DNA from: Takakia lepidozioides
Taxonomy: Eukaryota > Plantae > Bryophyta
Assembly (NCBI GenBank): GCA_030704615.1
Contig: CM060734.1
Span: forward strand, 35,154,001 to 35,218,000
Direction: 5' to 3'
DNA: 64,000 bases
Of the stretch, positions 5,311 through 43,638 are shown one piece after another (position 1 is the first letter of the stretch; each line of letters opens with the position of its first letter). Position numbers and translations under genes: made by a program. The notes under the pieces are model-generated. The model did not search any database. It was not told where the DNA came from and was given only the letters and a program-made list of their open reading frames with translations.

Positions 5311-6295
5311 AATGAGACCTCACAAATGACTTTGTGTAATTATCGAGCTTTGTCCACATTTGTGACCAAATGACCATTTCAATTTTATAAGTGAAGATCA
5401 AAGTACTTCTCATTTACGAAGAATTGTTTTCTCTTGCCCCCCCCATCAGCTGAGATTTAATGGTACTTCAAATTAGAGTTAGTTATTGAGATGTTACTAG
5501 ACACACTCAGGCACTAGAATTGATAGAGTTGATAAGAAAGAAAATGCAAAAATTGGAGGGGAGGTCACATTGTTAAAAACAAACATGATGAAATAAGTAC
5601 AACCGCATGTTCTCACATCAGTTTGGATTTGAATAGAACTTAAACACAGAGCTAGGAAATCAAGTTAGCTTTCCAAAGGCATATCACACACTACAATTCA
5701 TGCGGGGATGCCTCCGCGTGAGCGTGTGAGCACGTGAGCGCAGTTAGACTCATGTCACGTCAGCAGTTCTCGCCACTTGGTTTACGGGTGTTACGGCACG
5801 TCAGTAGTCCTCGCCAGCGTGGTTGATGTCACGTCACGTCATGCCACGTCATTTCCATAGGCACGGACCTATAACCGCGGACGGAACAGGCGGAAGGGGG
5901 GAATGCTAGATCGTGAGCCCAGAGGCGTGAAGTAGGTGCATATTTGCGCGGAATGATTTATCTTTTCCAATCATTGCAAACTACATCTTTCACATCCATC
6001 CCACCGCCGCCCCTCGTGTCATAAATTGCGATTTGATAAGTGTGCGATTGCCGAAGTGAGACATTTATCCCTCCTATGAAAGAGAAAATGAGCGTGCTAG
6101 TTTCAACAAGCTGTTGTATCAGTCGATAACAAGGTGTAGTAGCAGTTCCCAGTGCAGATCCCCAACCATCAAAGTTAGCCGGAGTGGAATTGAGGCTTTC
6201 TTACGTAAAAATCGCCCAGATGGAATAGACTGATTTAGATATGGTCTACATACTAAGCCCTTGTATGTTTGGAAATCAAGTATTAAGTATCAAAC

Positions 6296-6381
6296 AGAAG
6301 TGATGATCGTCGACGATCATTACTTCTACCCAAATGCCAAAACAGATCAGAAGTGATGATCGGCACCAATCATCACTTCTG
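6296..6381. repeat. Palindromic repeat (CAGAAGTGATGAT-N-ATCATCACTTCTG); related copies at 17205-17480 on the other side of the retroelement
   Basis: Two hairpin copies here and 2-3 degenerate copies just after 17203, consistent with one repeat split by the insertion. Confidence 0.6.
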
Positions 6382-6454
6382 TTTTATTTATTTATTTTAA
6401 TTATTATTAATAAACAATACAAAACAAAAACAAAACAAAAAATAAATAAAAACA

Positions 6455-6812
6455 TGTCAAGTTAAATAAACACAGTGTGAAACTAACTAGAATAAAGCTA
6501 GTTATTTGTATTTAACACTTGGATTTAGTTCAAGTGTTAAGTCAGGTGTCAAGTTTAGTTTGACACCTGAACCGTCTTATCTTCACGAGAGCGTCAGTCG
6601 TGCGGCTCATCTCTCTCGAGTTGAGCCTGCACGATCGAGCTCCTTCACGCTTTAGAATCTAAGTGTGCTTATGTAGGGAGATTAGGTTGTTGTGGGGTGG
6701 AGTCCCCATAGCTTGGGATGCCCCTGGCTTGACTTCTATTTTAAAGAGTGATGAGTGGTGGTGTTGGTTTTCATGTTTCTTGTGTCAACACTGTGTTCTT
6801 AGTTTTCTATCA
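6455..6812 (+). repeat. Terminal repeat segment A1 (358 bp)
   Basis: Co-linear with 16760-17117, about 8 substitutions by eye; ends TATCA. Confidence 0.95.
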
Positions 6813-6826
6813 CTCGAGAGAGATGA
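6812..6826 (+). promoter_or_regulatory. Self-priming primer-binding site (Tf1/sushi type)
   Basis: ACTCGAGAGAGATGA is the perfect reverse complement of LTR bases 6607-6621 (TCATCTCTCTCGAGT); no TGG-type tRNA PBS is present. Confidence 0.8.
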
Positions 6827-7683
6827 TCTTGCATCTGTGAGTGCCAGAGGTGAGTTTAGTTTTTAGCACTTGTGGTTTTTGTTTTGAAAATGAGAGAGAG
6901 ACCAGTCTCTCAATCCGCCTTCCATACACTTGAGATCCCATGGCATGGCTCAGAGACAGCGGGTCTGGAGTGAGGTCATTATAGTCTGACGACTCTCTGT
7001 CACAAACGGCAGAGATGCGAACTCACTGAACTCAATCAGAGATATGTGAAGAGATATTTGATTGCCACGGGGTAGGTCACAAATAGAGAAGTGATATTAG
7101 GTTACATTTTGAGAGGAGGATTCGCACAGATATGTAACGTAGCTTGCTTGCAAGCACTGAATTGGTGAAGTAAGTTTTGGCATATGCTAGACTCATGGCC
7201 GGGAACGCAAGAATAAGCAATCGACATAGGATACGGTTTCAGAGGCGCAGCTATGTGATTCAGGAAAACAGATCTCTCTCTGTCGAATGAAGTTCCCGTG
7301 GAGGGGGTGAGCACGACAGGCAGCTGGGGGTGGTGGTCGAGACGAGAGGTACATAATGGTGGCTGTGGATGCCATGTGCGGAGCGGCGCTAGTGACAGCT
7401 ACTTGACATTGTGATATCGACCACGGAGGGAGCAGATTCGTTGCCAGAGAGAGTTTTCGTGTGTACACGGGGATACCGTATCCTGCTGCAAGAATCCACC
7501 AGAAAGAAAGCTACACGCAGCAATGACCTGTACTCACACAATGCTATGTAAATTTTTCTTAAGGAGAAAAGAAGAGAAGCAAGGCTGGGCGGCAGTTGTT
7601 ACAGGAATCTGGCCTGCTTGGAGGACATGAGACTTCGAATTCGGAAGGAGCTTCCTCACGATATTTCGCGATGGAGAAAGCCA

Positions 7684-8190
7684 TCAGGTGAAGTTGCTGA
7701 CAGTGCTGATGCTGCCGTAACAGAGCCTGCAACTCCTGCTTTTGAACTCGAAGCAGTTCCTGCTGTAGCACCTGGAGCCGTGGCCGAGACTCCTGCAGTT
7801 GCGAAGCCTACTCCAGTGGTGGATGCAGTAACTCCTGCTCCCGAGGCCGATGTATCTGTTGTGACACCAGAGACAGAAACCAAAGAAGCTGTGCCCACTG
7901 AGATTGAGACGAAGGAGGCGGTCTCTGCCGAGACAGGGGTTTCCAAGGAGACTGTAGTTGAAGAGCAAGATGAGAGTATCCCTGAAGATGTAGCTATGTG
8001 GGGCGTCCCTTTGCTCCACACCAAGGGGGATGAGCGAACTCGGTGCAAATCACAGATCTGAAGAACTTCCCATTTTTCTCCCCTACCAAGAAAGAACTGA
8101 GGATAGCTACAAATGAGGCTCGGGTGTTGTTGCAGGGTAATTACCCGGAACTGGTTGTGAAAAAGGTTTTCATCAACGTCCCGTTTCATC
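7684..8190 (+). pseudogene. Captured patellin (Sec14/CRAL-TRIO) fragments inside the retroelement leader
   Basis: Acidic P/E/A-rich stretch, then PEDVAMWGVPLLHTKGDERT, joined across a deletion to QITDLKN..KKELRIATNEARVLLQGNYPELVVKKVFINVPF; both are patellin-type motifs. Confidence 0.8.
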
Positions 8191-8233
8191 AATCGCAAGC
8201 TTCCCTGCCATTGTTGTTGTGCGAGCTCGCAGC

Positions 8234-8508
8234 TATGGCGTCACTCAGTTTCCTCAAGCATTCTGGCATCCGCTTCTTCGTTGGTGGGAACTTGTGTGGC
8301 TGTGCCGTCTCACCATGCCGCTGTCTCTGTCAAGATGGCTCCTGTGAGGTGCCAAGCAAAAATAGACGCTGAAGCCTTGCAGCGACGGGCTGTGATGGCT
8401 GCCGCCGTGGCCCCTGTGTTGACATTGGCTTCACCTGCTTTAGCCTTGGAAAGCTATTATGAAGGTTTGAAGAAGGAGTCCAAGGAATTCTTAGGGAACC
8501 TGCAGTGA
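8234..8508 (+). pseudogene. Captured 5' fragment of a plastid thylakoid-lumen protein gene (bipartite transit peptide)
   Basis: MASLSF... start, VRCQA stromal cleavage-like site, twin-Arg RRAVMAAAVAPVLTLASPALA with an AxA site; frameshifted. Confidence 0.5.
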
Positions 8509-8831
8509 ATCGCAAAAAAACAAGGGAACAGGGAACCAAAGGAAACCAATTGAAAATAGTTTTTCCTTGTATTTGTTTCTATTTAAGGTCATATATTATA
8601 TTTACAGAGCCTCTTTTGCCATATCTTTGTCATATGAGCTCCGTTTGACACAGTTTTTGAGGGGATAGCTATAGAAAGGGGAAATCTACCTATCTGGTTT
8701 TAGTTTTTTTGGACTTTGCTAAAAATCTATGGAATTTCTTGAGTGTGAGTGTGCTATGAAAGATCCACAATTCTGTTTCTAGAACCTGTTGTGGTCTACA
8801 TGAGAGACAAATCTGTGGATGTCCTCCTTGT

Positions 8832-9590
8832 ATGGCTGGGGGAAATGAGGACGTAATTGAAAGGCAGGTCTCTTCTCTTAGCCTGTGCACACAAGGGGAC
8901 AAGATTTATGTTTTTCAAGGGGCTCAGACTGACTTGAGTGGAGAGCAGTTGGACGAGTTGATTGCATACTGGGAGTCAGGCATTAGCAGTAGACAACAAA
9001 CTACTGTAGTTGGCATTGAAGGCCTCAATATTACTTTGGACAGTCAGAACTCTGTTGGAGCCAGCAGTTCTGCAGCTGTAGGTGAAATACCAAAGTGGGT
9101 GAAAGCTAGGCTTGGAACACAGCAAAAAACGGCCCCGGGGACCAAGGTGTTCAGCCATAAGGCCGTGGTGTACTGAAGCAGAGGAGCAGGAGCTACACAA
9201 GTTTGTGCAATCAGACATGGTTGCAGCCGGACACGCTCTACACGAGGCAACCACGAGCGGGGGTTCATTAGCAATGAAAAGTTTGTGCTGCTTGAAGGAG
9301 ATGTAGTCATTCGCAAAGATGACACCCGCAACCGTTTCAAAGCTTTCGAGTTGAGAGACTGTCAGACCCTACCTTTATTTTCTTTAGTATTCAGTGAGCG
9401 GGAGATAGGGGAGTATTGCTTTGTCTCTACCTGGTAGAAAGAGGGTTGGTTAGAGCGAGCTACTGTAGCTTGGGACAAGGTTAGTGGCAGGTTTCTGGAC
9501 ATAGATATACCTCCTACACCTTACCATCATGCAGAGCGAGGCACTTTGAGAGAAGTCTGGCAGTTGATAGCATAGATCAGGATTAGATCT
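8832..9590 (+). pseudogene. Decayed extra ORF of unknown function upstream of gag
   Basis: 114-aa ORF whose frame continues past a single TGA; no recognisable motif. Confidence 0.35.
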
Positions 9591-10095
9591 TGCTTGGTCG
9601 GGCTTCTATTCTTCCCCTCCCTCTCTTTACTATTTTCATTACTTTGTACTTGTAGTTGCCAAAGCCTCTCTTGGTGGAGGCCAGTCAGTCCGGGGTTTTG
9701 GGTTGGGATATTTTGCAGTATCAGCATTGCAGATGGATTTTGGTGTGGGGGTGTTGATGTTTTGATTTCTTGTATTTGGATCCCCCCTAACACCTGCATG
9801 CTTGACTGTGCGCCATGTTGGTTTTGTGTGGGCGCTTGCTTTCATAGGGATTAGGCCGGATTTGATCACCGGTCAATCCTAGAGTATGCTGTCGGTGGTG
9901 AGGCTGGAATGATGACCAGCAAGACCACCAGTGTTTCTTCTATGGTGAGACTGGGTTGATGACTAGCCAACCATAGGAGTTCTTGCGGTGGATGCAGGTG
10001 CAGGTGCCCTGAGCCACTGGGATATGACCCTTAAACTGCAACAGATGCCCACCCGTATCACTATTAGAATTAGTACTAGAGCCTTATAATGTCAC

Positions 10096-11810
10096 GTGGG
10101 GGAGGTGCACATTGTGAGTGTCATCACGGAGTTACCCAAGGGTTTTGAGGGGAGTACGGCTACAGGCAGTAACAGTGAGAGTGGGTTCACAAGACGAGGT
10201 ATTCGGTTCAGACCACCTTCACCTCCACCCTCAACTAGTGCAGAGTCAGACACATACTCGGAGGCTTCATCAACAGGTGTGCAGTTTCATTCGCCATTGT
10301 TGTGGGACGACATGGAGGAGATGTATGGAGCTACCAAGAGGCCTCGTAGGTACTCTGGAGCTGTGGGCACAATTGAGCTGGATGACTTTATCCAGGAGTT
10401 CGACAGCTGGTGTGATTTGCAGCAGATGCGCAATCCACAGCTGTTCACCCCATTCATGGCGTGGAAGGGACTGTTCCAGCATTTGGAAGGTCCGCCTATG
10501 GACGATTACCACGAGTTCAGGCAAGGACATGAAACAGAGATTGAGGAGTGGAGGATGTATTGTAGGTGGTACCAGTTCAAAAGGTGCTACTACTCCTCCT
10601 GCCACGACTACAACACATGTGCCTAGATTCAACCCGGTGGTGGAGTTCTTCCAGGAGTTGCGGAGGAACTACCAAGGTGTACGGACAGAGAAGTTGCGAA
10701 GTTTGCAAGACTTCCAGCGCAAACCCAGTGAGAGCCTGCGAGAGGCGTACACTCGTATGAGGCGCTTGATAAGTGTAACCCAAGGGGTTACTGAAGCTCA
10801 GGCAATCCAGTTCTGGTATGGAATTTTGGACAAGGAGCTCAGGAGAAGGGTGCGGGATGCAACCCTGTTACAAGCAGCCCAACCCACATTAGCAGATGTG
10901 TTTCTGCTGGCTGAGCGGATTGAGCTCAATATGGTGGAGGAGCGAGTTGTTACCATTGGATTTGGCAAAGACATGCCTGCAAGAGGCGCAGCTGCCAGCC
11001 CACAGGCACAAGGGACTGCCCAACAGCGTGGTCAGGGGGGCAAGGTTTCCCAACCCAAATTTCATGGAGCTTATAGGGGACCTCAGGTGCAGAGGCCAGT
11101 AGCATCTTTTGCAAGCCAACAGCAACCATGGGTGATATGTTGGACATGTGGAGGACCCCATGTCAAGAGAGATTGCCCAGAGAGTGGCAAAAGGCCGGCA
11201 CCAACACAGTGGCAGTGTGGGCATTGTGGCAAGTATGGGCATGGAGATGCCCAGTGTTATGACTTGCATCCTGAGTTGCGCCCAGGCCAGTTCCAAGGAA
11301 CAATGGTGGCCGGGGCGAGGTGGACCAGCCCAGAGAGGACGAGGTGGCCGGGCACGAGGTGCAAGCCAAGGGCAAGCTCAACATGGCCAAGTACGCGGAG
11401 ATCAGGGTGTTGACCAAGGCATGGCCAACCGGCTTCAGCAGCTAGAGCAGAGGCTCGCTGCCATGGCTACAGCTCAGGTGGTACCGGCTCCCAGGCGGGA
11501 TGGTCCACCTCCTGCTCCTGAGGGAGGAGATATGGGAGGCATGGGATTCATGTGCGGAGCAGCACTACCACTAGAGCAGGTGGAGTCTGCTGCAGCCGTG
11601 ACTCGAGGAGCAGCACGAGTTCTTGAGCCACGAGGTGCAGAGGTGGAATTGGATCCACAACGTGGGGAGGCAAGCCGTCAGGCGAGGCTTCCTCAATCAT
11701 TCACATTGGCGGAGACAGTGTCGACGCCATCCATAGCACCTAGTTCTCGCCCGACTGTTACCGAGGCGGAGGTTACTATGCCATGGGGAGAGCTACACGT
11801 GCATCACTGA
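10096..11810 (+). pseudogene. gag (capsid-like region plus two CCHC zinc knuckles), frameshifted
   Basis: LDDFIQEFDSWC; LQDFQRKPSESLREAYTRM; CWTCGGPHVKRDC and CGHCGKYGHGDAQC. Confidence 0.85.
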
Positions 11811-12073
11811 CATCTGCTACCAAGGCTAGTGCAGCCGGTGTGTTATTGGGGGCAGCCACCTCTGTGTGTCAAGCCCCACTGTTCTCGGCAACCATGATTG
11901 CGACGCCGGGGGTAAGACCAGCTGCAGTGTTCAGACTAGCAGCAACACTCTGCGAGAGTGGGGAGGTCACTTCATCTTCTGCAGAGTTACTGGAAGGTGT
12001 AGTGGCAGAGGGATCCTCGGATTTGAGGGTCAAGACTGCCACGGCTACGCCATGACAAGCTGCAGCTGCCAGG

Positions 12074-12811
12074 TTGACGGAGCTGCCAGCTAGGCCAACC
12101 TTTGAGCGCACCCTGGTGACACCTGGAGTTGTCTTGTTAGACAACCAGGATGACATTTTCTCTTTGAGTGGACTGGCAGGCAAGAAATACCGGCCACTGC
12201 GGGTCTTGTTGGACTTGAGAGCTCAACCACTGATGTTGGGCAGAGCTGCTATTGCAGGTTTGGGCCTCATGGAGGCGGATATGGAGCCTTGTCCTTTCCA
12301 GATACAGACATCTCTGGGAGGATCAGAGCAGGCTCGGGGCATGACACGGCGTGAGTTGGCCATTAGACTGCAGCCGGATCATCCTATAGATGGCTTAGTG
12401 ATGCGAGCCAAGGCCATTGTGACAGACGCGGTCTTTTACGATGTTCTCGTTGGTGGGGCAGTATTATATCCCATGGGTTTCACCCTGGACTTTTGGGAGG
12501 AATCAGCATCCTACATGCCTGGATGGCAGTCAGGGGATGGTCGTCGTGCACAACTCCCTGTGACATTCATTGGGGGTATTGCGGCTGCCCAGCGGGGCAA
12601 GATGCCAACACTAGCCGCTTTTACAGCTGCAGTTAGTTGGCCTGGAGAGTTGCTGGAAGGCAATGCCCATGCAGAGGATGTGCCACCTTCAGTAGAGCAG
12701 GATGACATGCATGGTACGGCGGAGTTGCCTGCCATGGTTGCTCACACTCCATTGTGGGGTACGAGCAAGGATTTGCAGCAGGCTGCTGATGGACGGGTGC
12801 AACAAGCCTAG
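12074..12811 (+). pseudogene. Retrotransposon aspartic protease
   Basis: RVLLDLRAQPLMLG (degenerate D-x-G-A) and YDVLVGGAVL. Confidence 0.75.
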
Positions 12812-12919
12812 GTAAAGGCTTTCGTAGCGTCATGAGAAGAGGAGAGTGCGGTGATTGCACCAGGACCACCTCAGTTGTCGCCATTGGATACCACACCTCT
12901 TGTATGGCAGTGCCCGGAT

Positions 12920-13880
12920 GAAGACATATGTCTTCTGGACTTGTTTGGCGGGATCAGCACTGGATTGGCTGCAGTGCTGCAGGCAGGTGTACGAGTTCGA
13001 CGTTACCTGTATGTGGAGAGGGATGAGACTGCACGACACGTCTCACTACGCCATGTTGCTCAGTTGGTACAACAATACCCTGATTTGTTGCCAGTGTCTG
13101 CAGTTCGTGGATACCAACAAGCCTTGCCAGCAGACATTTCGTTGCTGGGGGCGCAGGATTTGGAGCAGGTTGGCTCCATTGATCTGGTAGTGGCAGGTTG
13201 GCCCTGCCAAGGGCATTCATCAGCCGGGCATGACAATGGATTGCGAGAGTCGAGGACGGGTCTGTTTTGGGAGATGGTGCGGGTTTTGCGCCACTTGCAG
13301 CTTCATCAAGCTGTATCTCCAGCATACATCTTGGAGAATGTGCCACTGATGGGTGATTCTCGGGCCAGGGTGATGGCCAGTGTGCATCAAGTCCGGTCGT
13401 GGCTTGGGTCAGCAGTGTTGCTGAATGCAGCTGTAGTGGGGTCACGGGCTCATCGTCCACAGCTATGGTGGACTAACTTGATGCCACCCGCACTGCTCAA
13501 GCGTGCATTTGATGGGTGCAGCGGCCAGCACACCTCACAGTGGATAGCATTTTGGACACAGGGAGGCAGTCTCAAGGTGTGAGACACGATGACCGTTCAC
13601 CTTTGGCAGTGGTCAACAGGGTGGGTCAACCACGAGCAGCATTACCTACACTGCTCAGCTTCCCAGGCTCCCATGCTTTTCGGGATGGTGGACCTGGCCT
13701 CTTGTGGGATAGCCAGTTGCAACAATTAGTGGAGCCCAATGCTGACGAGCGCGAGCGGGCAATGGGTTTTACCACTGGTACCACGGCGGTGCCATCTCTT
13801 TATGAGGCATCACGTCGTCAGGTGTTGGGGCAAGCAATGGATCTCAATTGCTTGACCTGGATTATCAGCTTGGCTATGGC
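12920..13880 (+). pseudogene. DNA (cytosine-5)-methyltransferase catalytic domain, DNMT3-like, embedded in pol
   Basis: Motif I LLDLFGGI; II YVERD; III ADI; IV DLVVAGWPCQG (catalytic PC); VI ILENV; VIII SRAHRPQLWWTNL; IX ERERAMGF; X RRQVLGQAMD. One 1-bp frameshift near 13515. Confidence 0.93.
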
Positions 13881-14379
13881 CGAGCAGCGCAGAGTACGGA
13901 GTATACTTCCCTTCATGGTCTCCCTGCCTACCGAGACGGTACAGGCAGCGAGTGGGGGCGAGCAGGTGAGGACCACGAGGTGCAGGCCGCATCCATGGCA
14001 TACGTGGGAGGTGCTCGAGGTTCAGAAGGAGTTGGCAGCCAAGACGGCGGTGATGGATCAGGTTGGGGATTTTTCTCGGGTTGAGGAGGTCCTCAAGGAT
14101 GGGATGATGGGGCAGGGTGAGACATTGTCACTGATAGAGGAGGCAGTGGTCACTGCTCAAGAGGTTGCAGCATAACAACCACGGAACGCGTCTTCTACCT
14201 CTAAGCCTGTTGGACTCAAGGTTGCAGTCACGGAGGACAACTGGGAGCCTGATGTTGGACCTATAGTCACCGGAGGAGAGAGACGACGTATACGGCGGTT
14301 CTTGAGGGCTTACAGGAACTGCTTTGCCTTCAGTTTGAAGGACTTTGGAACACTGAAGGGTTAAGAGATTCGCATTGAA

Positions 14380-15606
14380 TTGGCTACTAACACGTCAATC
14401 TTTCGGAGACCCTATAGATACAGTGACATGGAGAGGTCCTTGATTCAGATGAGAACTCAGGACCTTTGGGAGGTTGGTTTGGTGGAGCTATCTGGGGGAG
14501 AGTATGCTTCAGTCACAGTGATGTCAGCCAAGAAGGATGTTTATGGCAATTGGACGGAGAGACGTATGTGCGGTGATTACCGGCCTGTAAATAGTCAGAC
14601 CAAGTCCGATAGGTATGCTATGCCGACACCAGAGGAGATCTTTGATGCCATTGGGCATGCCAAGGTCTTTAGCACTTTGGATTTATCCGGATATCACCAG
14701 TTGTCGATCAAGGAGGCGGATAAGCAGAAGACGACATTCTGGGGGATCAATGAGCACGAGAAGGATTGCCTTTACCAGTGGCGGTTCTTACCATTTGGGC
14801 TCAAGAACGCTCCGGCAGAGTTTCAGAGAGTTATGGACAGGATTCTAGCAGGGGTGGAGTTTGATCGGTGCTACATAGATGACATCATCATCTTTAGTGC
14901 TACGGTGGAGGAGCATGAGAGACACCTTCAGGTGATATTTGAGCGCTTGAGGGCGCACGGATTGAAGTTACATCCGGGGAAGTGCAAGTTTTTCCACAAC
15001 CAGATTGAGTATCTGGGTTACATGATATATCCTGGAGGATTGGGGGTACAGCAGACTAAAGTAGAGTCCATTGCACAGATTCCACGCCCCACGGATGTGA
15101 GCCGAGTTCGAGCTTTCATGGGGTTAGCAAACTATTATAGACGGTTTGTTAAGGGATTTAGTGCCATTGCAAAGGCTCTAACCAAGCTGACCAAGGTCGA
15201 CCAGGAGTGGCAGTGGGAAGATGAGCAAGAACAAGCTTTTCAAGACAAGGCGAGGTTGACCTCGGCGCCCATCTTGAGACGACCTATCAGGGGGCGTCCT
15301 TTTCAGCTGCATACGGATTGGAGCATGATGGGGCTTGGAGCGGTGCTCACACAGGTGGATGATGAGGGAAGAGAGTTCATAGTGGCTTATGCTAGCCGTT
15401 CGAACAATGCTGCCGAGTCTAAGTATAGCTCATATGAGGGAGAATGCTTAGCTGCAGTGTGGGCCGTGACACACTTCAGGTGCTATCTATACGGCAATCA
15501 CTTCACCCTTGTTACGGATCACCAACCACTCAAGTGGTTGATGGAGTCAGACAAGCTTATGGGGAAGCTTGCACGGTGGGCACTCATCCTTCAAGAGTAT
15601 GACTTT
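14380..15606 (+). pseudogene. Reverse transcriptase and RNase H
   Basis: RMCGDYR, FSTLDL-SGYHQ, LPFGLKNAPAEFQR, YIDDIIIFS, LHTDWS..GLGAVL, YEGECLAAVWA, TDHQPL, LARWALILQEYDF. Confidence 0.95.
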
Positions 15607-16210
15607 CAGACCACCGCACCACTTCTCAGGATCATCCTGAGGCCGATGGCTTGGCAGAGAAGGTTGTTCAGACAGTGAAGAGGGGTTTGCGCAAGTATGG
15701 CTTGCAAAAGGGACACCTAGGAGATTGGGACCTTCAGTTACCTTGGTTAGCCATGGGCTACAGGTTCAGCAAGTAAGCATCACTTGCCTCCTTCTCACCA
15801 TACTTTCTTCTCTTTGGCCGCGAGCCGGATTTGTCTGCATCCATTCGTAGAGAAGCTGCTACAGTTCTCAACCTTGACGATCCGGACATGTGGGCACGTG
15901 CATGTGATCAGCGTGCAGAGTTGTTTAAGTAAGTCATGCCCATGGCTTTCGAGAACCTTGCCATTGCACAACATCGTGATACGTTGAGGTATGCTACCAT
16001 ACGTGGTAGGGGCTATCGTCCTAGGGTTCGGAGATTTAACCCTGGTGACTATGTTCATCTGCAGCAGACTGCTCCTATGACCTTGGATGTGACTGCATGA
16101 CGTGTTATTTTGAGGGTTCGAGAGGTCTTGCCCTCAGGCGTCTTGATCTTGGAGGGTCGGGATGGCATAACTTGGAAGGACCATGTGCGTAATTGTGCAC
16201 CATGTCACCT
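15607..16210 (+). pseudogene. Integrase, C-terminal half only (zinc finger and first two catalytic Asp deleted)
   Basis: HRTTSQDHPEADGLAEKVVQTVK...WDLQLPWLAMGYR..SPYFLLFGREP directly follows the end of RNase H. Confidence 0.8.
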
Positions 16211-16267
16211 TCTGAATGTCGATGGCAGGATTGACCCAAACCTGGTAGTGGTATCTACAAGTTTGAG

Positions 16268-16405
16268 GTGCATGTTGTGTGGGTCTGCTAGAGGGGCAGC
16301 CACCATGCTGGTGTATGATCGATGCTCTAGAGGTTGGCATATGGGATGCTTGACTCCACCTCTTGAGATGGTTCCGGATGGGGATTGATTATGTCCACAT
16401 TGCAT
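16268..16405 (+). pseudogene. PHD finger at the C-terminus of pol
   Basis: CMLC..ATMLVYDRC.RGWHMGCLTPPLEMVPDGD*LCPHC; C4HC3 pattern with one Cys>Tyr and Trp>stop. Confidence 0.85.
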
Positions 16406-16672
16406 TGGATAGTGGGAGTGGATACAACCATGGAAGGCTAACAAGAAACGTAAGGCCAAGCTACTAGGAAACCTTGAACACACGAGATCTTGGCTCAAGT
16501 TTACAGATTGCAAGACGGCGACTAACGATGGGGCTACTCTTGTACCCGGCCTCTTGGTCTATAGAGTTTGAGTACAATAGGGACAGTGATAGAGGACTTA
16601 GTACGGCTGTGGCTGTTACATCTTGTAGTTATCTGGAGTTAGAGGGACCTATCCACCAGCTAGGGGGGCGAT

Positions 16673-17203
16673 TGTGGCAGATTACTTTATTGTGCATATA
16701 TGCGTGGTGTGGTTTGGACAGCGATATAGTTGTGTAGCGATATGTATGCGCACGACAGCTGTCAAGTTAAATAAACACAGTGTGAAACTAACTAGAATAA
16801 AGCTAGTTATTTGTATTTAACACTTGGATTTAGTTCAAGTGTTAAGTCAGGTGTCAAGTTTAGTTTGACACCTGAACCGTCTTATCTTCACGAGAGCGTC
16901 AGTCGTGCGGCTCATCTCTCTCGAGTTGAGCCTGCACGACCAAGCTCCTTCACGCTTTAGAATTTGAGTGTGCTTATGTAGGGAGATTAGGTTGTTGTGG
17001 GATGGAGTCCCCATAGCTTGGGGTGCCCCTGGCTTGACATCTATTTTAAAGAGTGATGAGTGGTGGTGTTGGTTTTCATGTTTCTTGTGTCAACACTGTG
17101 TTCTTAGTTTCCTATCATTGTGGCATACTACTTTATTGTGCATATATGCGTGGTGTGGTTTGGATAGCGATGTAGTTGTGTAGCGATATGTATGCGCACG
17201 ACA
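16673..17203 (+). repeat. 3' terminal block: B1 (16673-16757) - GC - A2 (16760-17117) - T - B2 (17119-17203)
   Basis: B1 and B2 are 85-bp copies with 4 differences; A2 matches A1; B1 starts with TG 1 nt after the PPT. Confidence 0.95.
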
Positions 17204-17483
17204 AACAGAGCAGAGCAAAAGTGATGATCGACACCGACAACCACTTCTGCTTTGTTCTGCTCTGTGTTTGCATCAATGAAGCAATGTAGTGCGGCTGTCC
17301 AGAGCGGAACTGTGGCACAATGAAGCGTGTCTCAACTTGTTAGATCAGAGGAAAACTGATTGTCGGCACCGTTCATCACTTCTGCTCGGTTTTTTTTGTT
17401 TTTTTGTTTTTTTTTCGTAATTTTCTAAAAATAAAATACAGAGAAGAAAAAAAAAAACAAAGCAGAAATGATGATCGGTGGGC

Positions 17484-17526
<43 letters not shown>

Positions 17527-18483
17527 CCCTCCGTATTGTTTCCAAAAAAAATTGTTCTAGTCTCTTCTGTGTCGCTATGTACTGCAGGCTTCTTTTTTAT
17601 ACCATGATCCCTCTTCTTTTCGTCAATTTGGGAGGAAGCAGGGTCTTCTTGGGTTAGCCTCAATGGAGCCTTATGTTATTTTATCCTCATTGTAATTATT
17701 ATTGTAAAACATTCAATTGTAATTGCAGAATGTTGTGGAATGGATGCCACAGTTTTAGGCGTATTTCCCATTTCGGATATTTTGATGGTATTCTTGATGG
17801 TATTTTGGTTTCATGTTCCCTAAGTTCGTCTCACGGTCATAGGACCCTACAGATGGTTCCTCTTTGTGAATAGTAGAAGACTGATGTAAGATGACATGGA
17901 GACTGATGCGTAGTCTTTTCTTTAGTATGGAAAAGATGACATTGTGTAAGATCCCACTGAACCTTACAGGTAAGATTCCCCACCCTAGGATCTTACGCAT
18001 AAGGTGTCTGCCCGCTATTGTTGACATGACATTCCTCCATATAAACCCGTAGGTTTTTAATGTATAGAATGAGTATTGAGCTATCATCTCACCTTAGCCC
18101 TGAAAAGCCAAACTGGGTCAAAACGGTGGGAGACATTTTCTCCGGGGAGAGTTTTCTCATGTGGGAGATGTTTTCTCACGCAACAATTCTTTGATCTGAA
18201 AAATCATAACCCCGATCGTGAAACCGTGCAGATTACGCATCTTGTCCGTCAAGTGGACGCATCAGCAACCCACAATTTCCATCCATTTGATTGATATATG
18301 AGAAAACCATATAAAAAGATCTAAAAAACGGGCGAATGGGCTAGTGGTAGTTACATAAGTTAAAATTGTATTTAAAACTAACTTTGGAAGAGTAGAATAA
18401 AATAAAATAAAATAACTTTGGAAGGGTGTTTTAGAGTTTTAAAGTTTCTTCAGTGTGAGAGAGTAAGTTAGGGAATGTACATA

Positions 18484-24290: not shown

Positions 24291-24795
24291 GTTGTTGTCA
24301 GGATAGTAAGACACGTGTTTCTCCTGTCGCCGACCAGCACCCACCACCTGGAGATATGTGATATTGTTCGCTGGTGCATCTAAGAGGATCCATCCCTGAG
24401 GCCTGCCATGGGAATTGTAGTTAAAGTTCTTGAGGGGCTCTTGGATGCCACCTCAAAGCTCACACCCTCGTTACAGTGTTACAAGTAGCAACCCTGACTA
24501 TGTCAATGATATGCTAGTAGAAACTGAACATGCAAATGATGTCATCGTTTTCGGAACAAAAACACATTCTGATTGATGACCTTGTAAATGAAAATCAGTC
24601 AGAAGGTTTAAGCTTGATGTTAGGTGACACACTTGAAGTGAGTTTTCCAAGAAGGTTTAAAAGGTGATCGCAAGTCTACAACTCAATCCCACAGTTCTAG
24701 AACTTTTATATCAATGAAGAAACTCAGCTACCAGTCCTACTCTTCTAAGCAACATGTCTGCACCCTTGCAAGTTTACGGTACACAGCCAGAGTAC

Positions 24796-26345
24796 AAACC
24801 ATATGCATTCCCAATTTGTTTGGTGTCTTTGGAACCCACGATGATGAGAAGACAGAATATCATAAGGATCCAGTTGATTTCAAGAATGTAGGTCTGCCCC
24901 TGGATCCGATGTGATGTGTGCACAATCTTCACTTGGGGAAAGCAACCAAGGGCTGATGACTGCTTGACAATAGAGAATGTGGCTGATATGATGGCCTGAC
25001 TTGCAATCAAAGCTGCTATTGTTGCCAGCACAGCCACGGGCCAGTACAGCTTGTCTGTAAACCACACAACATCACAGTTACCACACCAAGAGAAAAGATG
25101 CAGAACCCACAACCACCTACTATGTGCCCACAGTGCCCTACCCATTCGGCCATCTGTCGGAAGCTTAAACACCACAAGAAAGAGACATAGCTCGAATGTG
25201 ATAACGAAGTAGAAAGTGCAACATGTGTGCATTGTTGAAATGAATTGAGAAACGGAAGTAAAATATCAATCATGTAATGATCACACGTTTAGACCCCACC
25301 AGCCACTCTAAAAGCAGTGTAGAATACCTGAACCAACCAATCCTGGCTTCAGTCTGGATTATGCACGAGCGAGTACAAAGGAAGGTAGTAAGGGACAGTA
25401 AATGGACATAGCTTGCCTGGAAGTGAACTGTAAAACGTGTTTCCCACTTGATCAGGATGTTTCAAAAGGTATGCCGCCTGATCAAGATAAGCTACCTTGT
25501 GGCAGGGGAACACTAAGTCAGAAAATGCAATCTGCACCCACATAAATGTCCCCACTTTTTGTTGGCTCTCTTGTAGAGAGAGACTATGCATCATGTTCAA
25601 GTCAAATTTCAATGGAGAAAATGTGGTCAAAGGACCTTACACCGTGTCAAGCTTCTGATTTCGTCTGGGGTGTTTCTATTGTGCATGCTTGAGGGTATAC
25701 TCCGTGCAGGCTCTTAGGCCATTGGAAGCTGTCATTAGGGTTTTAATCCACCAGCCTTGAATCTGAAGCTTGGATTTTAGGCATGTGTGTTGTGCTGAGT
25801 CATGCTCCCTAATCTTACCGTCCTCTTATGTTTTGCCTAAGCAAGAGAGTCAATTGCCAATTGCAGCTTGTTATAGGATCAGTCCGTTCCACCCCCGTTT
25901 ACGTATGAACATGAATACAAATTGACTGCAAGACCAGCCTCCTATTGGCATTCCACAACTTGTGTCAAGCAGAGATGTAGCTGAGGGCAATTACCTGAAT
26001 GGATTGAACAAAGAAGTGGCCTAAATCAGCAAACAAGGCTTCGGTCCCTGCAAGAGAGAGACCACCAAATTTACTTTCAAGAGCACAGACCTTGGTGACA
26101 GCTGCATTTGTGGTGCAGTTCGTCTTACATCTTTGACATAAGCAGATCATCAAGACATTTTCACCGATTGTGATGACTTCAATGGTTTTAAAAGCCCCAC
26201 GGACATGTTGCTTGCCTGTGATGCAAAGCACAATGCCTCCAAGATGTTCCCATGCTGCTTTATTGTTCCTGCTGAAAAATGCAATGATATGAAGGGGACC
26301 AAAAATGCACGAAGTACAGTCTTGTCGTATTTGATGATGGGCTTT
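24796..26345 (-). pseudogene. HAK/KUP/KT potassium transporter, internal exons only, frameshifted
   Basis: IIKYDKTVLRAF; GTEALFADLGHF..SIQ; AYLDQAAYL; [62 protein letters not shown]. Confidence 0.85.
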
Positions 26346-28410
26346 GATCTCACCTGGCTGGCATGGAGGAACCCCCCCCCATCAGCGCTTGCTCATGGTG
26401 TTAAGCAACACTGGTTTTTGTAAGTCTGTTCTTCTACCCGAACTCTCAACAAATACCAACTTGTTTGGTCATATTTCGGGTAAACTTTCTCATATTTCTC
26501 TTTTTAGAAGATCCCATTTTGACTTCTCCTTTTCTACACAAACTAGAACTTTCCCTATTTCCTTTGTTTTCGGGTAGAGGATGTTTCTTTTCATCTCACC
26601 GTCAACCTGAGCAGTCTACATGCAATCAAAGATAGCTGCAAAAAATCACCAGATTTCGACCTTACAACAGGCTCGGACTCTTTAATGCAGGGCAAATGGG
26701 GGTAGCACAGGGAAAGGCCCAGGTGGTAATACAGCTAGTCTTGCTGCTCTGTGTGCTTGGGAAGAAAAGATCCTTGGTCAATATAATCTAGTCACGGTAA
26801 GCTTATGACCCTTTCTTGGATGTACCTCATTATTGCTTCAGAGAAACCCAAAGTCTGGGCCTGTTGTTGGTTCCGCATGTCTCATTATGGGACCTGAGAG
26901 ACAGTGTTTTTTCTAAGAAATTTGGAAAACAGCACGAGTGGCTACAGAGTTCTGCAAAAATAGTGGTAAATTTTGTTTATCCACTAAATTCATCATATAT
27001 TCCATATTTGGCGAGGACATCCATAATATAATTTTTTATTTGGACAAATTTGGCTATTTCATGCATGAAAAAACAGGGAATTTGCAACTGGAAATTCCAT
27101 TTTATTTGCTGAGGTTAAAATCTGGCGAAAATTCGCCAATTAAAAAAACGCTGTTGAGAGATAGTTCCTTTATAGAAATGTGAAAGGCTGTAGTAGTGAA
27201 CTATGTACTAGTTGGGAATTAATTCTATGTAGGCATTTATAATTACATGTTTAAAAGTTTCAAATTGAAAAATGCTTATAAACTATGTAGATTGGAATTT
27301 TTTTGATATTGAGATCAACAAAAACAGACAATTTGATGTGATGAAGTTCACAATTTCATCTTATAAGATCATGAAATTGAGTATCAGATATCGAAATTGA
27401 TCTAATGAAGCTGCCAATTTTGAAATTGACAATCTCACTTCTAAATGGAGATTACTTATTTTAAATGATCATTCAACTTTATTATAGTATCCTTTTTTCA
27501 CGTATTAATTGATACTAGGTATTATATACTACATATGTGATTGAAAAATATATTACTTCTCCCTTTTATAGTCTTTGAAGGTATTCCATATTCTATTCAA
27601 GATTTGAGACATATCTAAATAGTAATGTATAAGCATGGTAGTTTTATTTATATTATATTTTAAACATAACGATTTTCAATATCGCAAGTTAAAGGATGTA
27701 ATATAAAAACGGAAATCTATATTAAAATATCTATTTAACAACCCTAAAAATCCATCTCAAAATTAGAATCCCATAATACCTATCTAAATTTAGCAATCCT
27801 ATCCACCTCAAAACAACAACCCTACAATATCCAAGTCAAAATAGCAACCCCAAAATGCCAACCTTATAACTTCTCTTTAATAAATAAATTGACAATGAAT
27901 TACATCACATGAACTAACATAAATAGGAGTATGGTAAACTATCTAAAATAAAATGTGGAATTGTCTACTTCAAGGATTCAAAGGGATTGTTAAGGATGAA
28001 ATTTTCATATTTCAATGGTCCAAATAGACAATGGAAGATTTGGACCCAATGTATACCCAAAGACAAAACACAAGAAATAAATTTATAGAATAAATTAAAT
28101 CAACATATAACCTCAACATAAAATATCAAAGAGTCCTTGAAATTGGTACTGAAGACAACTCAGAATAGTATGACATGAATCAAAATTGATTAAAAGATGG
28201 AACAACGTAACACATGTGTATAGAAATACTTAAAAAAACAAATGACCATCAAAACTTGAAGCTGGGTATGAGGCTTGTAAAAGTTTCGATGCTCATTTTG
28301 TTATTTAAGGATTTATGTACACATGTGTGGATTTGTTCCAGGTGGAGAACATCAACATTGCAAAAAATGGACATGGAGAAGCATCACATTACGAAGCCGA
28401 AGACACTATA

Positions 28411-29060
28411 ACAGGTCCTGGTTTAATATGAGATGAAACGAAATCCATTCAATGGGCGATCGAATGGTTGACCATCCAAATGATTTTCGTTTGCTTTCAA
28501 TCTTTGCCACTATGTTCAACATACCATGTACCAGGTCCCGCACTAATATGAGATGAAACAAAATTCACTCGATGGCTCAACGAATGGTTGCCCAACGAAA
28601 TGATTTTGGTTCGCTTTGAGACTTGGCCAGTATATTGAATGTACCATGTAAGAGGTCCTAGAGTAATATGAGATGAAACGAAAGTCGTTCAATCAGCCAA
28701 CAGATAGTTGCCCATCCAAATGATTTTCGTTCGCTACAAGACTTGGCCAGTATGTTGAATGTACCATGTAAAAGGTCCCACAGTAATATGAGATGAAACG
28801 AAAATCGTTCAATGGGCCAACAGATGGTTGCCCATCGAAATGATTTTGGTTCGCTTTGAGACTTGGCTAGTATGTTGAATGTACCATGTAAGAGGTCCCA
28901 GAGTAATATGAGATGAAACGAAAATCATTCAATGGGCCAACAGATGGTTGCCCATCCAAATGATTTTCGTTCGCTTCGAGACTTGGCCAGTATGTTGAAT
29001 GTACCATGTAAGAGGTCCCAGAGTAATATGAGATCCAACGAAATTCGTTCAATGGGCCAA
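28411..29060 (+). repeat. 120-bp tandem satellite, about 5.5 copies
   Basis: TAATATGAGAT at 28424, 28544, 28664, 28784, 28904 and 29024. Confidence 0.92.
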
Positions 29061-29678
29061 TGAGGCGTTCACCTGTCATCTAATTTTGTTCATTGGGAAA
29101 AAGAAATGCTCTCATGGGTGAAAGGCTATTGCACCCATTGAACATGTGAGGTTGAGGCCCATCTTTTGCCCGCATGTGCTTGAACATGTGTGTAACACAT
29201 GTGAGGAGATACAACAGAAGAAAAAAATCATTTGCCTCCCCAAGGACGCGCTCACCTCTCAACCAATTCGAGAATTTAATTGAATTGAAATGAATTTGAA
29301 GCAAATAATTAGGTTTCCACTTCCTTTGATTGGGGGTTTCTGCTACGCATTGATTTTATTTTTGGCTCAGTTTTGTTGTGCGGCTTCAAGTTTCCCACTG
29401 CTACATCCCTGCAAAACTTTGGACCAAACAAAAATGAAAACAAAATAAAATTTAGAAATGTTCACTTCGCTCACTATTGCAGAACTATCTATGAAGACTG
29501 CATGTAATAGAACGCAAATCAAGTTTGGAGTGCAAAACAGGGAAGAAACTGTGGTTTTGGGTCCAAATGAATTTTGTTCACTCCCAAATCTGCCACGCAC
29601 GTAACATATGTCGTCGTTACACATACGGTTCAAAATTGGAATGGAAAAAAAATCATGTGCACGCGAGACGGAGTTCAA

Positions 29679-29960
29679 CAGGTCCCACAATAATAGGAGA
29701 TGAACCCGAATTCATTGAATGGGTCAACGGATGGTTGCCCATCCAAATCATTTTTGTTTGCTTTCAAACTTTGCCAGTACGTTCGGTACACCCTCTCACA
29801 GGTCCCGCACTAATATGAGATGAAACGAAATTCATTCGATGGCTCAACGAATGGTTGCCCATCGAAATGATTTTGGTTCGCTTTGAGACTTGGCCAGTAT
29901 GTTGAATGTACCATGTAAAAGGTCCCGGAGTAATATGAGATAAAACAAAAAATTATTCAA
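29679..29960 (+). repeat. Second block of the same 120-bp satellite (about 2.3 copies)
   Basis: Unit starts at 29691, 29811 and 29931. Confidence 0.88.
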
Positions 29961-30319
29961 TATTTGCTGATTCAGGGTTTTAGTAGTTTAGGATTGAAAT
30001 TTTTCGCCACCTGTGATACAAGCTTGCGATATGAGGTCCACATCTGTAGAGGTTGCACTCGCCCTCTGCAACGATCAAGCAGTTCACGAGCACGAAATTG
30101 GCAAAAATAACAACTATGCGAAACTAACACATAAAGAACAAATAGCCCCTATACCTGATGAAGGTGTTAACCTATAGGCGTGGCTTTTTCTCCATAACAG
30201 GTGCGAGAGTGGGCGGTGAGGCTTCATCTCAAATTGAAGGTCCTCGCCCATGGATAATTTCGCACGGCCAAACTTTGTACTAACCAGCCTGAGAAAAAAT
30301 CGTGCATTGTTCAAACCCT

Positions 30320-39882: not shown

Positions 39883-42800
39883 TTACATGTCTGCAAGTCC
39901 TTGTTGCAGATCAAGCACCTCTGCAAGTCCCTTCTCCAAGATATGATTCTCCGCCATGATGGCATCCAGATCAGACTGCACACTGGTTATATCTACTGGC
40001 GACTTCTGTAGATCTTCTAGCATGGCTTGCAGTTCTGCAATCTCTCTACCTATTTTGTCCATTTCAAATACCCTATCCACAATGTCTGCAAATGTTTCAT
40101 GGATGGTGCTGAGTGACCTGTATGCCTGTCGACAAACTGTATCCCGCTTTGCATCCCTGTCAACACAGATAATGGCACTTCAGCTTCATATGCAATAGGC
40201 AATTTTGCAACGACACAGAAGTTGTCAGTTTATAGATGTGGTTTTGGTTTGAAGTGCCACAAGTTGTGGAGTGATTTCATCCTAACAGGGAGAAAAGTCC
40301 CCTTTTCAGGCAGATTGTAATACGAGAATGGCTAGTTTAATTTGACGTAAAACCAATACTCCAGTCTTGTATGCTGAACAAGGAGAGAATGAAACCTGAA
40401 GACAAGCTCATCCACAAGAGCGTGCGTGCGACGAAGGCGGTCGTGTGCGGCATTGCTGTCACGCTGCAAATGGCGGGTGTCGAGAATGATGCGTGCAATG
40501 TCAGTAGCCTGTTTTTGACTGTTGCGCACCAGCTCAGTGATGCGATGCACATAGGACGACCGCTTGGCTACATTCCCTTCCCTCTCCACTTCAGCCCTTA
40601 TTGTCCATATCTCTTCCTCCCTGTCATGAATCCGAAACCAACTTCAGCTGCTATGAAAACCAAAAGATGGAAGACTCATATCCAGAAGCCTTGATTGTTC
40701 TCTCCACACAGATACCTTGATCAACATACACGTACATATCCATTGACTACACGTGAACTTCCACTAACTACATTTTACTGAGCACGGAAGCACCCATCCA
40801 ATCCCCCTTCAAATGGGTAAACAAATGGTAGAGAAATAGGACACTAAGGAAATTCCCTAGCAAATGAGCGACCCCACTGACGAACACAGCAGAACTAAGC
40901 ACCTACCTAACACGAAGCAGGGTACTCAAGGGCTTCATTTGCTGCCGCATTTCTTTAATCTGCCTTAGCTTCCCATGCAGCTCCCCTCTGCCACTTAAAG
41001 CAATCTTCTCCAGGTCAGCCTTCTTCTCCTCCAAGGGTTGCCTCACTGCATCCCTGCATTAATGGACCCACATCTTAACCCTCAGTTGTGACGATATATT
41101 AACCCAGTCATATGTAATTCATCCAAAACTCATCACAATGCTCCAAGCGTCACACAGAATCATTCGGAGGCAACCAACCATGGTTATTGAATACATTTGC
41201 AATATTGACAAAAGGTGCTGAGATGCAGCTGTCATGAAAAACAACACATTCTATTTCCTGTTCAAAGATGGTAACAGACAGAGCAGAGTGAGCAAACACA
41301 CCACTCAGCTTGCAGTGCAGCAAGGTGCTGTTCACTGGCAGTCACACGTGACTGCAGCTGCTGTTGTGCAGAGGTTGGGGGAGTGGTTGGGTGCAGTGCC
41401 AGGTTCACAGCAGTGCGCATCAGCAGACTTTTCTTCTCCATTTCCTGGATTCTATCTAACCCTCCTTCATGTCTTTCCTTCAGCACCAGACCACGCTGCT
41501 CCTTGTCTCTAGCTTCTGCCTCCATCTACACAACCACGTGACTTTTGCAACAAAACCAAGCAAGCTTATATGCCCACAAGCAAATAGATGCCTGAACTTG
41601 GCTAGACAATCCAGAGAACTATACAAAGGGGCAACCGCTCATGAATACTCGGTGTATCAGTATTCTCTCCTTCCCACTCCATCCTATCAAGACTCCAGTA
41701 TTTCTTTCTAGTAATTGATCACAAATTGCGGCTCTAGCTAGCCTTTGCTGGAGCAGAGTATCAAAAGAAAAGTGAGAATAACACCTGCTGATTGGACCAG
41801 CTAGGACCAGCTAGTCTAAGAGGATATTTTCAAAATATTGCTTGAATTATTCACTGCACAATGAAGCATTGGTTGGTCAAAATGTCTGCCCTGCTTCTCA
41901 AACCACCAAACACTGGTATCACCACTCATGACACATTGAGAAGGAGCCCTACATCTGCTGTTCACGTGTATTTTTTGCAAATGGACCTTTATATCTCTGC
42001 AACATTGAAGTGAGCCAATTTCAAAAGATGTCAAGCTATGCACCTTGTCAGCCTGTGCAATGAGGCTTGCCAACTGCTCTTGAAGCTGTGCATTGACCAG
42101 GGTGTGCGTCTTTGCTTGATGCTGTCCGTCACCCACCTGAGCAACTGCTGCCGCACCCCAACTTTCTTCCTGACCTAAAAGATGGGATATTTCCAAAGCA
42201 CTGGAACTGGCACCAGCAGTTCCAGGGCCCTTGTCCAGTAGTAATACACCTTTACTGATCACTTTTGTGTCTCTACTTTTCGACACTTGTTTGACCTGTT
42301 GGGCAAGCTGAGCCAGCTCTGCATCTTCCAAGCCTTTTGTTGTCACTGCATTCTTCACATTCAGCTCCAGGAGAGCTGGAAGCAGCCATGCCCTGGGCTT
42401 TGCCTGCAGGGTAACCAATGTTGGCTTTTTCTGCACTTCCCCTTCAACAGCCCTGGAAGTACTCAGCCGTAAGGAACAAGTTCTGAAAGGCACCCCTACA
42501 TCACCTTTGTCCTTTGCTGATGTATGTGCGGAAGCATGTGAGTGCACCAATGCGTGCTGTACTGTGGCACTCAGTTTGTCAAGGGTGGGGGCGGCGTGCC
42601 CTTTTCGTCCTCTAGAAGACGGCGTTGAAGATCTGGAGAGCCGGTCCAGCAGAAAGCGGAGCAGGCGGTGTGTGTTGCTGTGTGATGGGTAAAGGAACTG
42701 CAGCACGCATGTCATGTCACTTCCCTCTTTCTACTCCAATCTTTCCTGCTCCTGCATGCATGGCCACCTTCTCTCTCCCTTTCACTCTGTGCCTCCACTA

Positions 42801-43592
42801 CCTTACCATGAACTATTTGACTCTACAGCCTCCACCACATGATGAGTGTCAAGGATTGAATCAAATCCAATCATGATATACCTGGACAGCGCTAAATCCC
42901 CCCATTTCTTGCATATTTCCAACATTACAGTGAGGTATGATCTCGATGCATATTCTCCAGGAATAAGCCCAAGCTGCAAAGCCTACCTATCTAGTCGCCT
43001 TAGCATCCATTGCCAAAAATTCCCGTTCATTAGTTATCTCGCTATGGAGCTCACTTTGACCGCCCATATACTGCAGCTCCCAGTGGGAACAAATCTTCTA
43101 CTAAAAAATTTCTGATGATGCTATACAGGAAGGGAACAGCTGACCAACTGCGGACCACCACAGCTAAAGTCTGCCGACCATCAGCAGTTGACCGACTCAT
43201 CATTTTAACAGCCAATTGTCCTACAACTGCCCACCTAATTGCAGAACAATTAGACACCAAGAGCTATCTCATGTTGACAGAGAATTCAACCCTCACAAAC
43301 AGAAAGCAAATGCAGATAGATTCGACACTGGCCTGATGGAAGCTCAGGTCACCCTGATAGCCAAGCTGCTTGATGTCCAATGCCAAATCCATACACACTC
43401 GAAAGCGCTCGGCTGTGCCTGATGGAAGCCCGCTGGTGGGCGAGGTGCTAGAGCCACGCATCAGCGCCACAGCCTGCTCGCATATGACCACCAGGGCATT
43501 GGGACCTAATTCATGTACACCCTTGGCCTCCGCAGGTACGTTCACCCCGGCCTGCTGCAGAGCTACCAACATAATCTGCTGCGCATCATCCA

Positions 43593-43593: not shown

Positions 43594-43638
<45 letters not shown>
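43594..43638. repeat. (GA)n microsatellite directly before the CCDC22 start codon
   Basis: (CT)n tract on the + strand abutting the ATG. Confidence 0.9.

Follow-up and report, generated by a model that had tools for sequence, protein, structure and literature searches.

The closest described relative of the element reported here is KnitGypsy-Dnmt3 from the alga Klebsormidium nitens, a Gypsy retrotransposon with an unrearranged, intronless DNA methyltransferase (DNMT) domain of the DNMT3-like type, DIRS-type repeats (Fig. 4c legend) and signs of purifying selection (PMC5890265). Methylation of the element's own complementary DNA (cDNA) was put forward as a hypothesis in the same work, de Mendoza et al. 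2018 (PMC5890265). A 2019 paper then stated that land plants "such as tracheophytes" have no transposon-encoded methylases (PMC6338049), and the 2018 species table has neither a Marchantia nor a Sphagnum entry (PMC5890265). No land-plant report of DNMT-bearing retrotransposons was found in the searched literature, which excluded most subscription journals, Repbase and preprint supplements; the available parts of PMC12344493, PMC11982613, PMC10952607 and bioRxiv 10.64898/2026.05.21.726589 hold no such report, and two of them say just "streptophytes". Here, we describe a DNMT-bearing Gypsy element in a 64-kb stretch of contig CM060734.1 (the window; all coordinates are positions within it). We suggest, with a probability of roughly 0.6, that this dead copy from a moss represents a Gypsy family in which Gag, protease and a DNMT3-type enzyme form one open reading frame (ORF1), and in which the methyltransferase is packed in Gag-like amounts to methylate the element's own cDNA.

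The methyltransferase domain and its relatives

The decayed element spans 6455-17203 (10.7 kb), and its DNMT3-type cytosine-5 methyltransferase domain (12920-13890, plus strand), the last domain of ORF1, is found between the protease and the reverse transcriptase (RT). The profile search proposed in an earlier note, written from the sequence alone, gives a clear match to PF00145 (12836-13579, E 1e-12), and motifs I to X could be located in the linear, DNMT3-like order that the note had read: motif I LDLFGG at 12932, IV PCQ at 13202, VI ENV at 13334, VIII at 13454, IX ERERAMGF and X LGQAMD at 13825. PCQ and ENV are intact, as the note has it. A frameshift near 13513 interrupts the domain after motif VIII and before motif IX, and motif VIII reads R-P-Q, with Gln in place of the second Arg. 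In 69 related loci this residue is Arg 46 times, Gln 12 times, a stop ten times and a gap once, and the catalytic Cys is retained in 68 and the Glu of ENV in 67. (L-numbers below denote the 80 related metagenome loci and P-numbers database proteins.)

A profile of 13 relatives has DNMT3A/B as its best PDB matches (E 6e-20), followed by DRM2 (3e-10), M.HhaI (2e-6) and DNMT2 (2e-4). The best match of a predicted model of the relative P0002 (pLDDT 63, pTM 0.70) is also DNMT3A (E 3e-12), with about 60 residues between motifs VIII and IX poorly modelled. Judged by these profile and fold searches, the domain is nearer to DNMT3 than to DRM, DNMT1, DNMT2 or bacterial enzymes. A search of the ESM Atlas with the domain returned generic C5-methylase clusters only, and six pattern matches in viral contigs included no relatives.

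The domain belongs to the family and is not a stray insertion, because it is covered as deeply as the RT, has land-plant relatives and has been under purifying selection. In sequencing runs of the same organism, the summed contig depth (which is not a copy number) over the DNMT is similar to that over the RT and orders of magnitude above that of low-copy DNA, and many contigs are intact at 13513. Dozens of further loci carry the domain too, as the earlier note had expected of a family trait. A second, isolated DNMT fragment of 323 bp in the window (52346-52668, plus strand) covers motifs VI-VIII and onward, is 94% identical to the main copy, and its reading frame is unbroken at the site of the frameshift. 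Between divergent elements, the ratio of nonsynonymous to synonymous substitution rates (dN/dS) is 0.11-0.18 for the DNMT, 0.05 for the RT and 0.22-0.27 for the protease, which shows purifying selection on the DNMT between lineages.

A first search returned 41 longer proteins, the named ones from Marchantia polymorpha, Calypogeia fissa, Sphagnum troendelagicum and S. fallax (38-74% identity), and a profile search gave 446 clusters with E values of 1e-30 or lower. Most of the close relatives in Marchantia, Calypogeia and Sphagnum are 53-77% identical. Domain orders were read in the best 150 proteins of the profile search and in 20 earlier ones. Many have the order RT, RNase H, DNMT, integrase, PHD finger in a single frame (46 complete cases; P0036, P0102, P0109 and P0120 are of this kind), which implies either a shift of the domain inside pol or two separate captures. 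One Gag-protease-DNMT protein is from Closterium (39% identity), and none of the proteins found in these searches was labelled as Klebsormidium. In a quick DNMT tree, the window falls in a group of 16 rows together with Marchantia, Calypogeia and Sphagnum (100% support in the Shimodaira-Hasegawa-like approximate likelihood ratio test, SH-aLRT), with Closterium outside. The tree has 73 rows, SH-aLRT support only, midpoint drawing and the N-terminal half of the domain for the window, and no direction of transfer is claimed from it; of the phylogeny asked for in the earlier note it covers bryophyte proteins and Closterium, in a tree drawn without host DNMT3.

The host gene Gemin2 (45786-48152, minus strand, multi-exon, with PF04938 relatives) agrees with this placement, as two conserved exons match Sphagnum at 76-79% identity, compared with 50-61% for the fern Psilotum. 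From Gemin2 the host is most likely a moss, though probably one other than Sphagnum, and the suggestion of a land-plant lineage made in the earlier note is supported by this and by the named bryophyte relatives.

ORF1 and the ends of the element

All coding regions of the element are on the plus strand. The gag region (10090-11810) is broken by frameshifts and contains CCHC knuckles; its match to PF03732 (E 0.0017) fails the cut-off of that family, and its pieces are 48-75% identical to the intact ORF1 proteins P0048 and P0254. The aspartic protease (12056-12560) aligns with relatives bearing LLDSGA; its own catalytic motif is degenerate, DLR vs DSG/DTG in relatives. Against Pfam the window protease gave no match, and its L059 homologue matches PF13650 at E 2e-4, which does not pass the cut-off. 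Downstream of ORF1, the linker, RT and RNase H (14176-15609; RVT_1 E 2e-29, RT_RNaseH E 1.5e-37) continue in the frame of the DNMT C-terminus, with one extra stop at 14362. The region that follows, 15612-16412, has four internal stops and codes for a DDE integrase, of which just the C-terminal half is left, and for a PHD finger (E 6.5e-5, just short of the cut-off). Comparison with the uninterrupted pol of L059 shows that the N-terminal half of the integrase is deleted near 15609, and with it the zinc finger and two catalytic Asp residues, the first and the second. The order protease, RT, RNase H, DDE integrase is that of Ty3/Gypsy. With three stops in the protease-DNMT frame, the frameshift near 13513, the stop at 14362 and the loss and four stops in the integrase, the window copy is dead.

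One stop is different. ORF1 ends at a TAA followed by CAA CCA (14173-14181), a CARYYA context and a predicted readthrough signal. In a census of the 80 metagenome loci, of which 49 have a recognisable linker (the window was missed by the census anchor and read separately), 47 are interrupted by a stop at the corresponding position, and in 46 of these 47 CAR-YY comes next, compared with 0.8% of 30,970 background stops. The TAA at 14173 is therefore a feature of the family and not a point mutation, and it is absent from the 40 differences listed, out of 944, between the window and copies from the same organism. Fourteen database proteins of 1228-1437 residues with a motif X match end 71-163 residues past it without an RT. 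In L059, which is uninterrupted in both ORF1 and pol and is the kind of intact copy the earlier note wanted found, 1369 open codons are followed by TAG CAG TTA and then by 1047 open codons coding for RT, RNase H, integrase and PHD finger. The reading frame is maintained across the stop in all lineages.

Thus, by its coding sequence ORF1 is Gag-protease-DNMT with a conserved, leaky-looking stop before the RT. The earlier note had paired the frames at 12074 and 12851 and at 13516 and 14380, which we confirm, and had placed the DNMT inside a protease-DNMT-RT-RNase H-integrase polyprotein. The DNMT does belong to the element and shares the frame of the RT; it is the end of ORF1, however, and the reading of every stop as decay was mistaken for 14173. 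CARYYA is the readthrough context of tobacco mosaic virus (TMV) and functions with UAA in plants too (PMC2754532), and we consider it quite probable that pol is reached by readthrough of the conserved stop. With or without readthrough, the DNMT would be made together with Gag and not with Pol alone.

The ends of the element are arranged as split direct repeats, A1...B1-A2-B2. On the plus strand, A1 (6455-6812) starts the element with TGTCA and is 350/358 identical to A2 (16760-17117), in agreement with the estimate of about 98% in the earlier note, and B1 (16671-16757), which ends in CACGACA, is 83/87 identical to B2 (17117-17203), which ends the element with GACA. A polypurine-tract-like run (16662-16671, plus strand) lies directly before B1, and a CTAGGGGGG-type run is also found in L039, L070, L079, L025, L059 and L058. 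The two complete identical long terminal repeats (LTRs) and the tRNA primer site that are standard in Ty3/Gypsy are replaced by these split repeats and by a position after A1 that lacks TGG. The B1-A-B2 arrangement is shared by L039, L070 and L079, with both ends present in L039.

Between B1 and A2, the element ends are joined by 2 nt in the internal junction CACGACA-GC-TGTCA (16751-16764), whose core is the palindrome GACAGCTGTC. The motif CACGACA-NN-TGTCA occurs in seven elements (window, L006, L039, L058, L059, L070 and L079), two of which, L058 and L059, are about 49% identical to the window in the DNMT. The window element is flanked by a 4-bp target duplication, AACA at 6451-6454 and 17204-17207. 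Among seven two-ended elements the 4-bp duplications are exact in five and have one mismatch in two; besides the window, L039, L040, L042 and L074 have such duplications. The ends are of the TG..CA type with a short target duplication, as in Ty3/Gypsy, and because of the 4-bp duplications we take a DDE integrase to insert the elements of this family.

A second shared property of the ends concerns priming. The segment 6607-6620 (plus strand), 30 nt past a TATA-like motif and a candidate RNA 5' end, is the exact 14-nt reverse complement of the primer-binding position 6813-6826 (plus strand), immediately after A1 and without the initial TGG of a tRNA-type site; none of 2000 shuffles reached this. 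The complementarity extends over 14 nt in the window, over 15 nt in L059 and over 9-16 nt in five of 13 Sphagnum-type copies. The primer segment lies within A, 26-31 nt downstream of a TATA-like motif where one is found, and the pairing keeps its position with a different sequence in each of three lineages, which suggests self-priming. The minus strand is thus probably self-primed in the pattern of Tf1/Tj1, with both priming and transcription start predicted from these letters.

The A and B repeats differ at 12 of 445 bases. Substitutions accumulate at a rate near 1e-8 per site per year, which gives an insertion age of roughly 1-2 million years. The description "active recently" therefore holds in a loose sense only, and the copy in the window is dead.

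Seven loci have the long form and eight a short form, A-internal-B. The short form was considered as the product of a one-repeat circle and given no weight, since the same right flank is found in L025 (short) and in L070 (long), and B1-B2 recombination or an assembly collapse can therefore explain it. The 3' untranslated region also contains a motif, GGCGA..AA.GATGGGGCT...ACCC.GCCT, at 16511-16555 of the window, 7923-7970 of L058 and 8339-8386 of L059, a possible packaging or distal readthrough signal.

Proposed mechanism and its alternatives

We suggest the following cycle. ORF1 stops about 70-165 codons past motif X, with RT, RNase H, integrase and PHD finger next in the same frame, and these would be made by TMV-type readthrough of UAR-CAR-YY. 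Minus-strand synthesis would start where the RNA 5' end pairs just inside A1, Tf1-style, and the plus strand would be primed at the purine run before B1; the predicted product is a linear cDNA with a B+A terminal repeat at each end. Its ends could then join into a two-repeat circle, and the integrase would cut the CA-NN-TG junction within one (the left) repeat. Such a staggered cut would leave CA-3' ends with 2-nt overhangs, and insertion would give the arrangement seen in the genome, A-internal-B-A-B with a 4-bp duplication. We somewhat favour this circle route, and filler bases at the A2/B2 joint of L039 fit the end-joining it includes. Finally, the DNMT, given its likeness to DNMT3, may methylate the new cDNA de novo. 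Fused to Gag and protease, it would share the particle with the freshly made double-stranded DNA, and self-methylation is thus the simplest role for its predicted activity, one we put slightly above even odds.

It can further be speculated that these elements form a green-lineage, bryophyte-abundant Gypsy clade that self-primes and integrates only via the cut of the circle palindrome, in which the Gag-fused DNMT3 marks the earlier-made junction (at CpG or CHG) and the integrase cuts the other one. Such marking would explain both the retention of the enzyme and the single insertion form; we hold it to be a long shot.

Several observations, here and in the alternatives below, weigh against the proposed cycle. 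The two exceptions in the census (2/49) have a Tyr codon in place of the stop. Furthermore, 44 of the 49 loci belong to one Sphagnum-type lineage (L002, of this type, is 90-92% identical to named Sphagnum proteins), which leaves about five or six independent lineages. The distant P0273, P0277 and P0388, in which the DNMT is found before RT-RNase H or directly after Gag-protease, run from the DNMT into the RT in a single frame. As to priming, eight of the 13 Sphagnum-type copies have just 3-7 nt of exact primer match.

Pol could instead be made by re-initiation, splicing or a separate transcript, and the DNMT would then never be joined to the RT. Most Sphagnum-type copies have an in-frame ATG two codons past the stop, which would permit re-initiation, and in these copies CARYYA usually has C at its sixth position (CAACCC in 39/47 loci; the full CARYYA in only five of the 47, and in the window). 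However, the window, L033, L058, L059 and L060 have the full context and no ATG beside the stop, and a frame that is conserved across the stop in every lineage argues for readthrough, so we regard this alternative as rather improbable. The split repeats could also be rebuilt with the same enzymes and without any joined circle, by template switching of the PAT/Ngaro type, in which the RNA extends into B2 and B1-A2 serves as template for both ends. The layout is indeed the A1-B1-A2-B2 of PAT/Ngaro (PMC4157794). Three of the four A2/B2 joints are precise, filler being present in L039 only, which fits templated copying, and the permuted form that a symmetric circle predicts was seen in none of 19 left ends (17 distinct), which suits a directional process. 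On the other hand, both the primer site that follows A1 and the purine tract that precedes B1 occupy the places usual in LTR elements, from which B2 would not be copied out of the RNA. No recombinase family match was found in the two long reading frames of L059; its frames of at least 400 codons on the coding strand are ORF1 and an rve-type pol only, which ends in rve integrase and PHD finger, and the 4-bp duplications indicate DDE integration. Template switching is therefore unlikely, though clearly less so than the loss of readthrough.

The same low standing is given to the idea that the target of the DNMT is not the element's own cDNA, i.e., that the enzyme acts on host chromatin where the element inserts (with the PHD finger of the integrase as its guide) or on RNA, or binds nucleic acid without methylating it. 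RNA methylation and a benefit to the host are among the options listed by de Mendoza et al. 2018. When they placed the Klebsormidium domain in yeast, no DNA methylation resulted, an outcome they call inconclusive (PMC5890265). The DNMT is also under weaker constraint than the RT, with dN/dS of 0.45-0.6 among decayed Sphagnum-type copies and, for shared alleles, 0.54 vs 0.31 for the RT. Yet every catalytic motif is conserved across lineages, the fusion to Gag and protease puts the enzyme in the particle beside the cDNA, and the nearest structures are DNA enzymes, with DNMT2 scoring far lower, all of which favour self-methylation. That the DNMT joined the element by accident (nested insertion, misassembly), or that the host is an alga, is highly improbable. 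For an alga it can be said that no charophyte Gemin2 was among the matches for direct comparison. The Gemin2 identities and the bryophyte group of the tree speak for a moss, however, and the equal depth of DNMT and RT and the same domain order in dozens of loci and in annotated bryophyte proteins speak against an accident.

The family is of interest for several reasons. Annotated proteins of Marchantia polymorpha carry this ORF1, so the reason why a retrotransposon keeps a normally silencing enzyme is testable in a genetic model. With the conserved stop, the methyltransferase is likely a bulk component of the particle. The anatomy of the ends offers a mechanism for the DIRS-like repeats, for which the 2018 work had no explanation, and a candidate eukaryotic example of an integrase that acts on circle junctions. 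In addition, the ORFs of this family inflate DNMT counts in bryophyte annotations.

Other features of the window and known systems

Within the element, the segment 6860-8600 (plus strand) is low-copy, with gene-like fragments foreign to the standard family sequence; the summed contig depth over 7003-8205 is about 280-410, compared with 2e5-1e6 over the element body (run X1). The gene-like pieces are intronless, and two ORFs from the segment gave no match against Pfam; by resemblance we take one piece to be patellin/Sec14-like and one to be plastid-targeted-like. The segment possibly consists of captured host mRNA fragments or of a nested element. Upstream of gag, an extra ORF-like stretch (8760-9434) has a Cys/His cluster and deep family coverage; it has no match in Pfam, and tblastx against the 80 related loci gave none either.

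The element is inserted among short hairpin repeats (family D5; 6283-6454 and 17204-17490), and the cluster resembles a foldback repeat broken by the insertion. An Rfam scan of 6000-17600 gave seven sub-threshold matches, all of them in the flanking hairpins, where microRNA precursors are matched, and none within the element. Elsewhere in the window, we take the genes at 24774-26381 and 41816-43665 (both minus strand) to be KUP/HAK potassium-transporter-like and CCDC22-like, respectively. A tandem array at 28409-29967 has units of about 120 bp that are 80-86% alike. Another Gypsy remnant (49167-50870, plus strand) has gag, protease and the start of the RT fused to a further end, presumably chromodomain-like, and a third, larger Gypsy element (52693-63980, minus strand) with 263-bp terminal repeats that are 97% alike adjoins the isolated DNMT fragment.

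Compared with host DNMT3 (human DNMT3A/B; Physcomitrium DNMT3, PMC6453930), the element's DNMT has the same linear motif order and fold; however, it is only about 20% identical to human DNMT3A, lacks PWWP and ADD and is encoded by the element. Tf1/Tj1 (PMC4600332) also have a primer site complementary to their own 5' RNA, and Tj1 has an in-frame stop between structural and enzymatic regions. They differ in their ordinary LTRs, their 5-bp duplication and the absence of a methyltransferase, and their stop comes before the protease, whereas that of the present family comes after protease and DNMT. PAT, TOC and Ngaro (PMC4157794) share the A1-B1-A2-B2 split direct repeats, but they use a tyrosine recombinase, and the methyltransferase of DIRS/PAT is an adenine methyltransferase; the present family has an integrase of the DDE type that carries a PHD finger, and its ends are TG..CA with 4-bp duplications. 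The integrase of foamy virus (PMC1180852), also of the DDE type, cuts a palindromic circle junction to give processed ends. That junction is transient and lies between LTR ends, while in our family the junction is inherited as a fixed part of the repeat, where cutting would take place.

A bryophyte DNMT-Gypsy family with the conserved ORF1 stop, the self-primer and the junction anatomy is not described in the searched literature. The passages on KnitGypsy-Dnmt3 make no mention of a readthrough stop, self-primer, junction or target duplication (PMC5890265). In these passages that element is described only in the alga, and its DNMT is "in the Pol ORF", the same ORF as the RT according to the authors' reply (PMC5890265). 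Compared by description and not by Klebsormidium sequence, the window element very likely belongs to the KnitGypsy-Dnmt3 lineage. In the moss-element family, DNMT and RT share a frame with a conserved stop between them.

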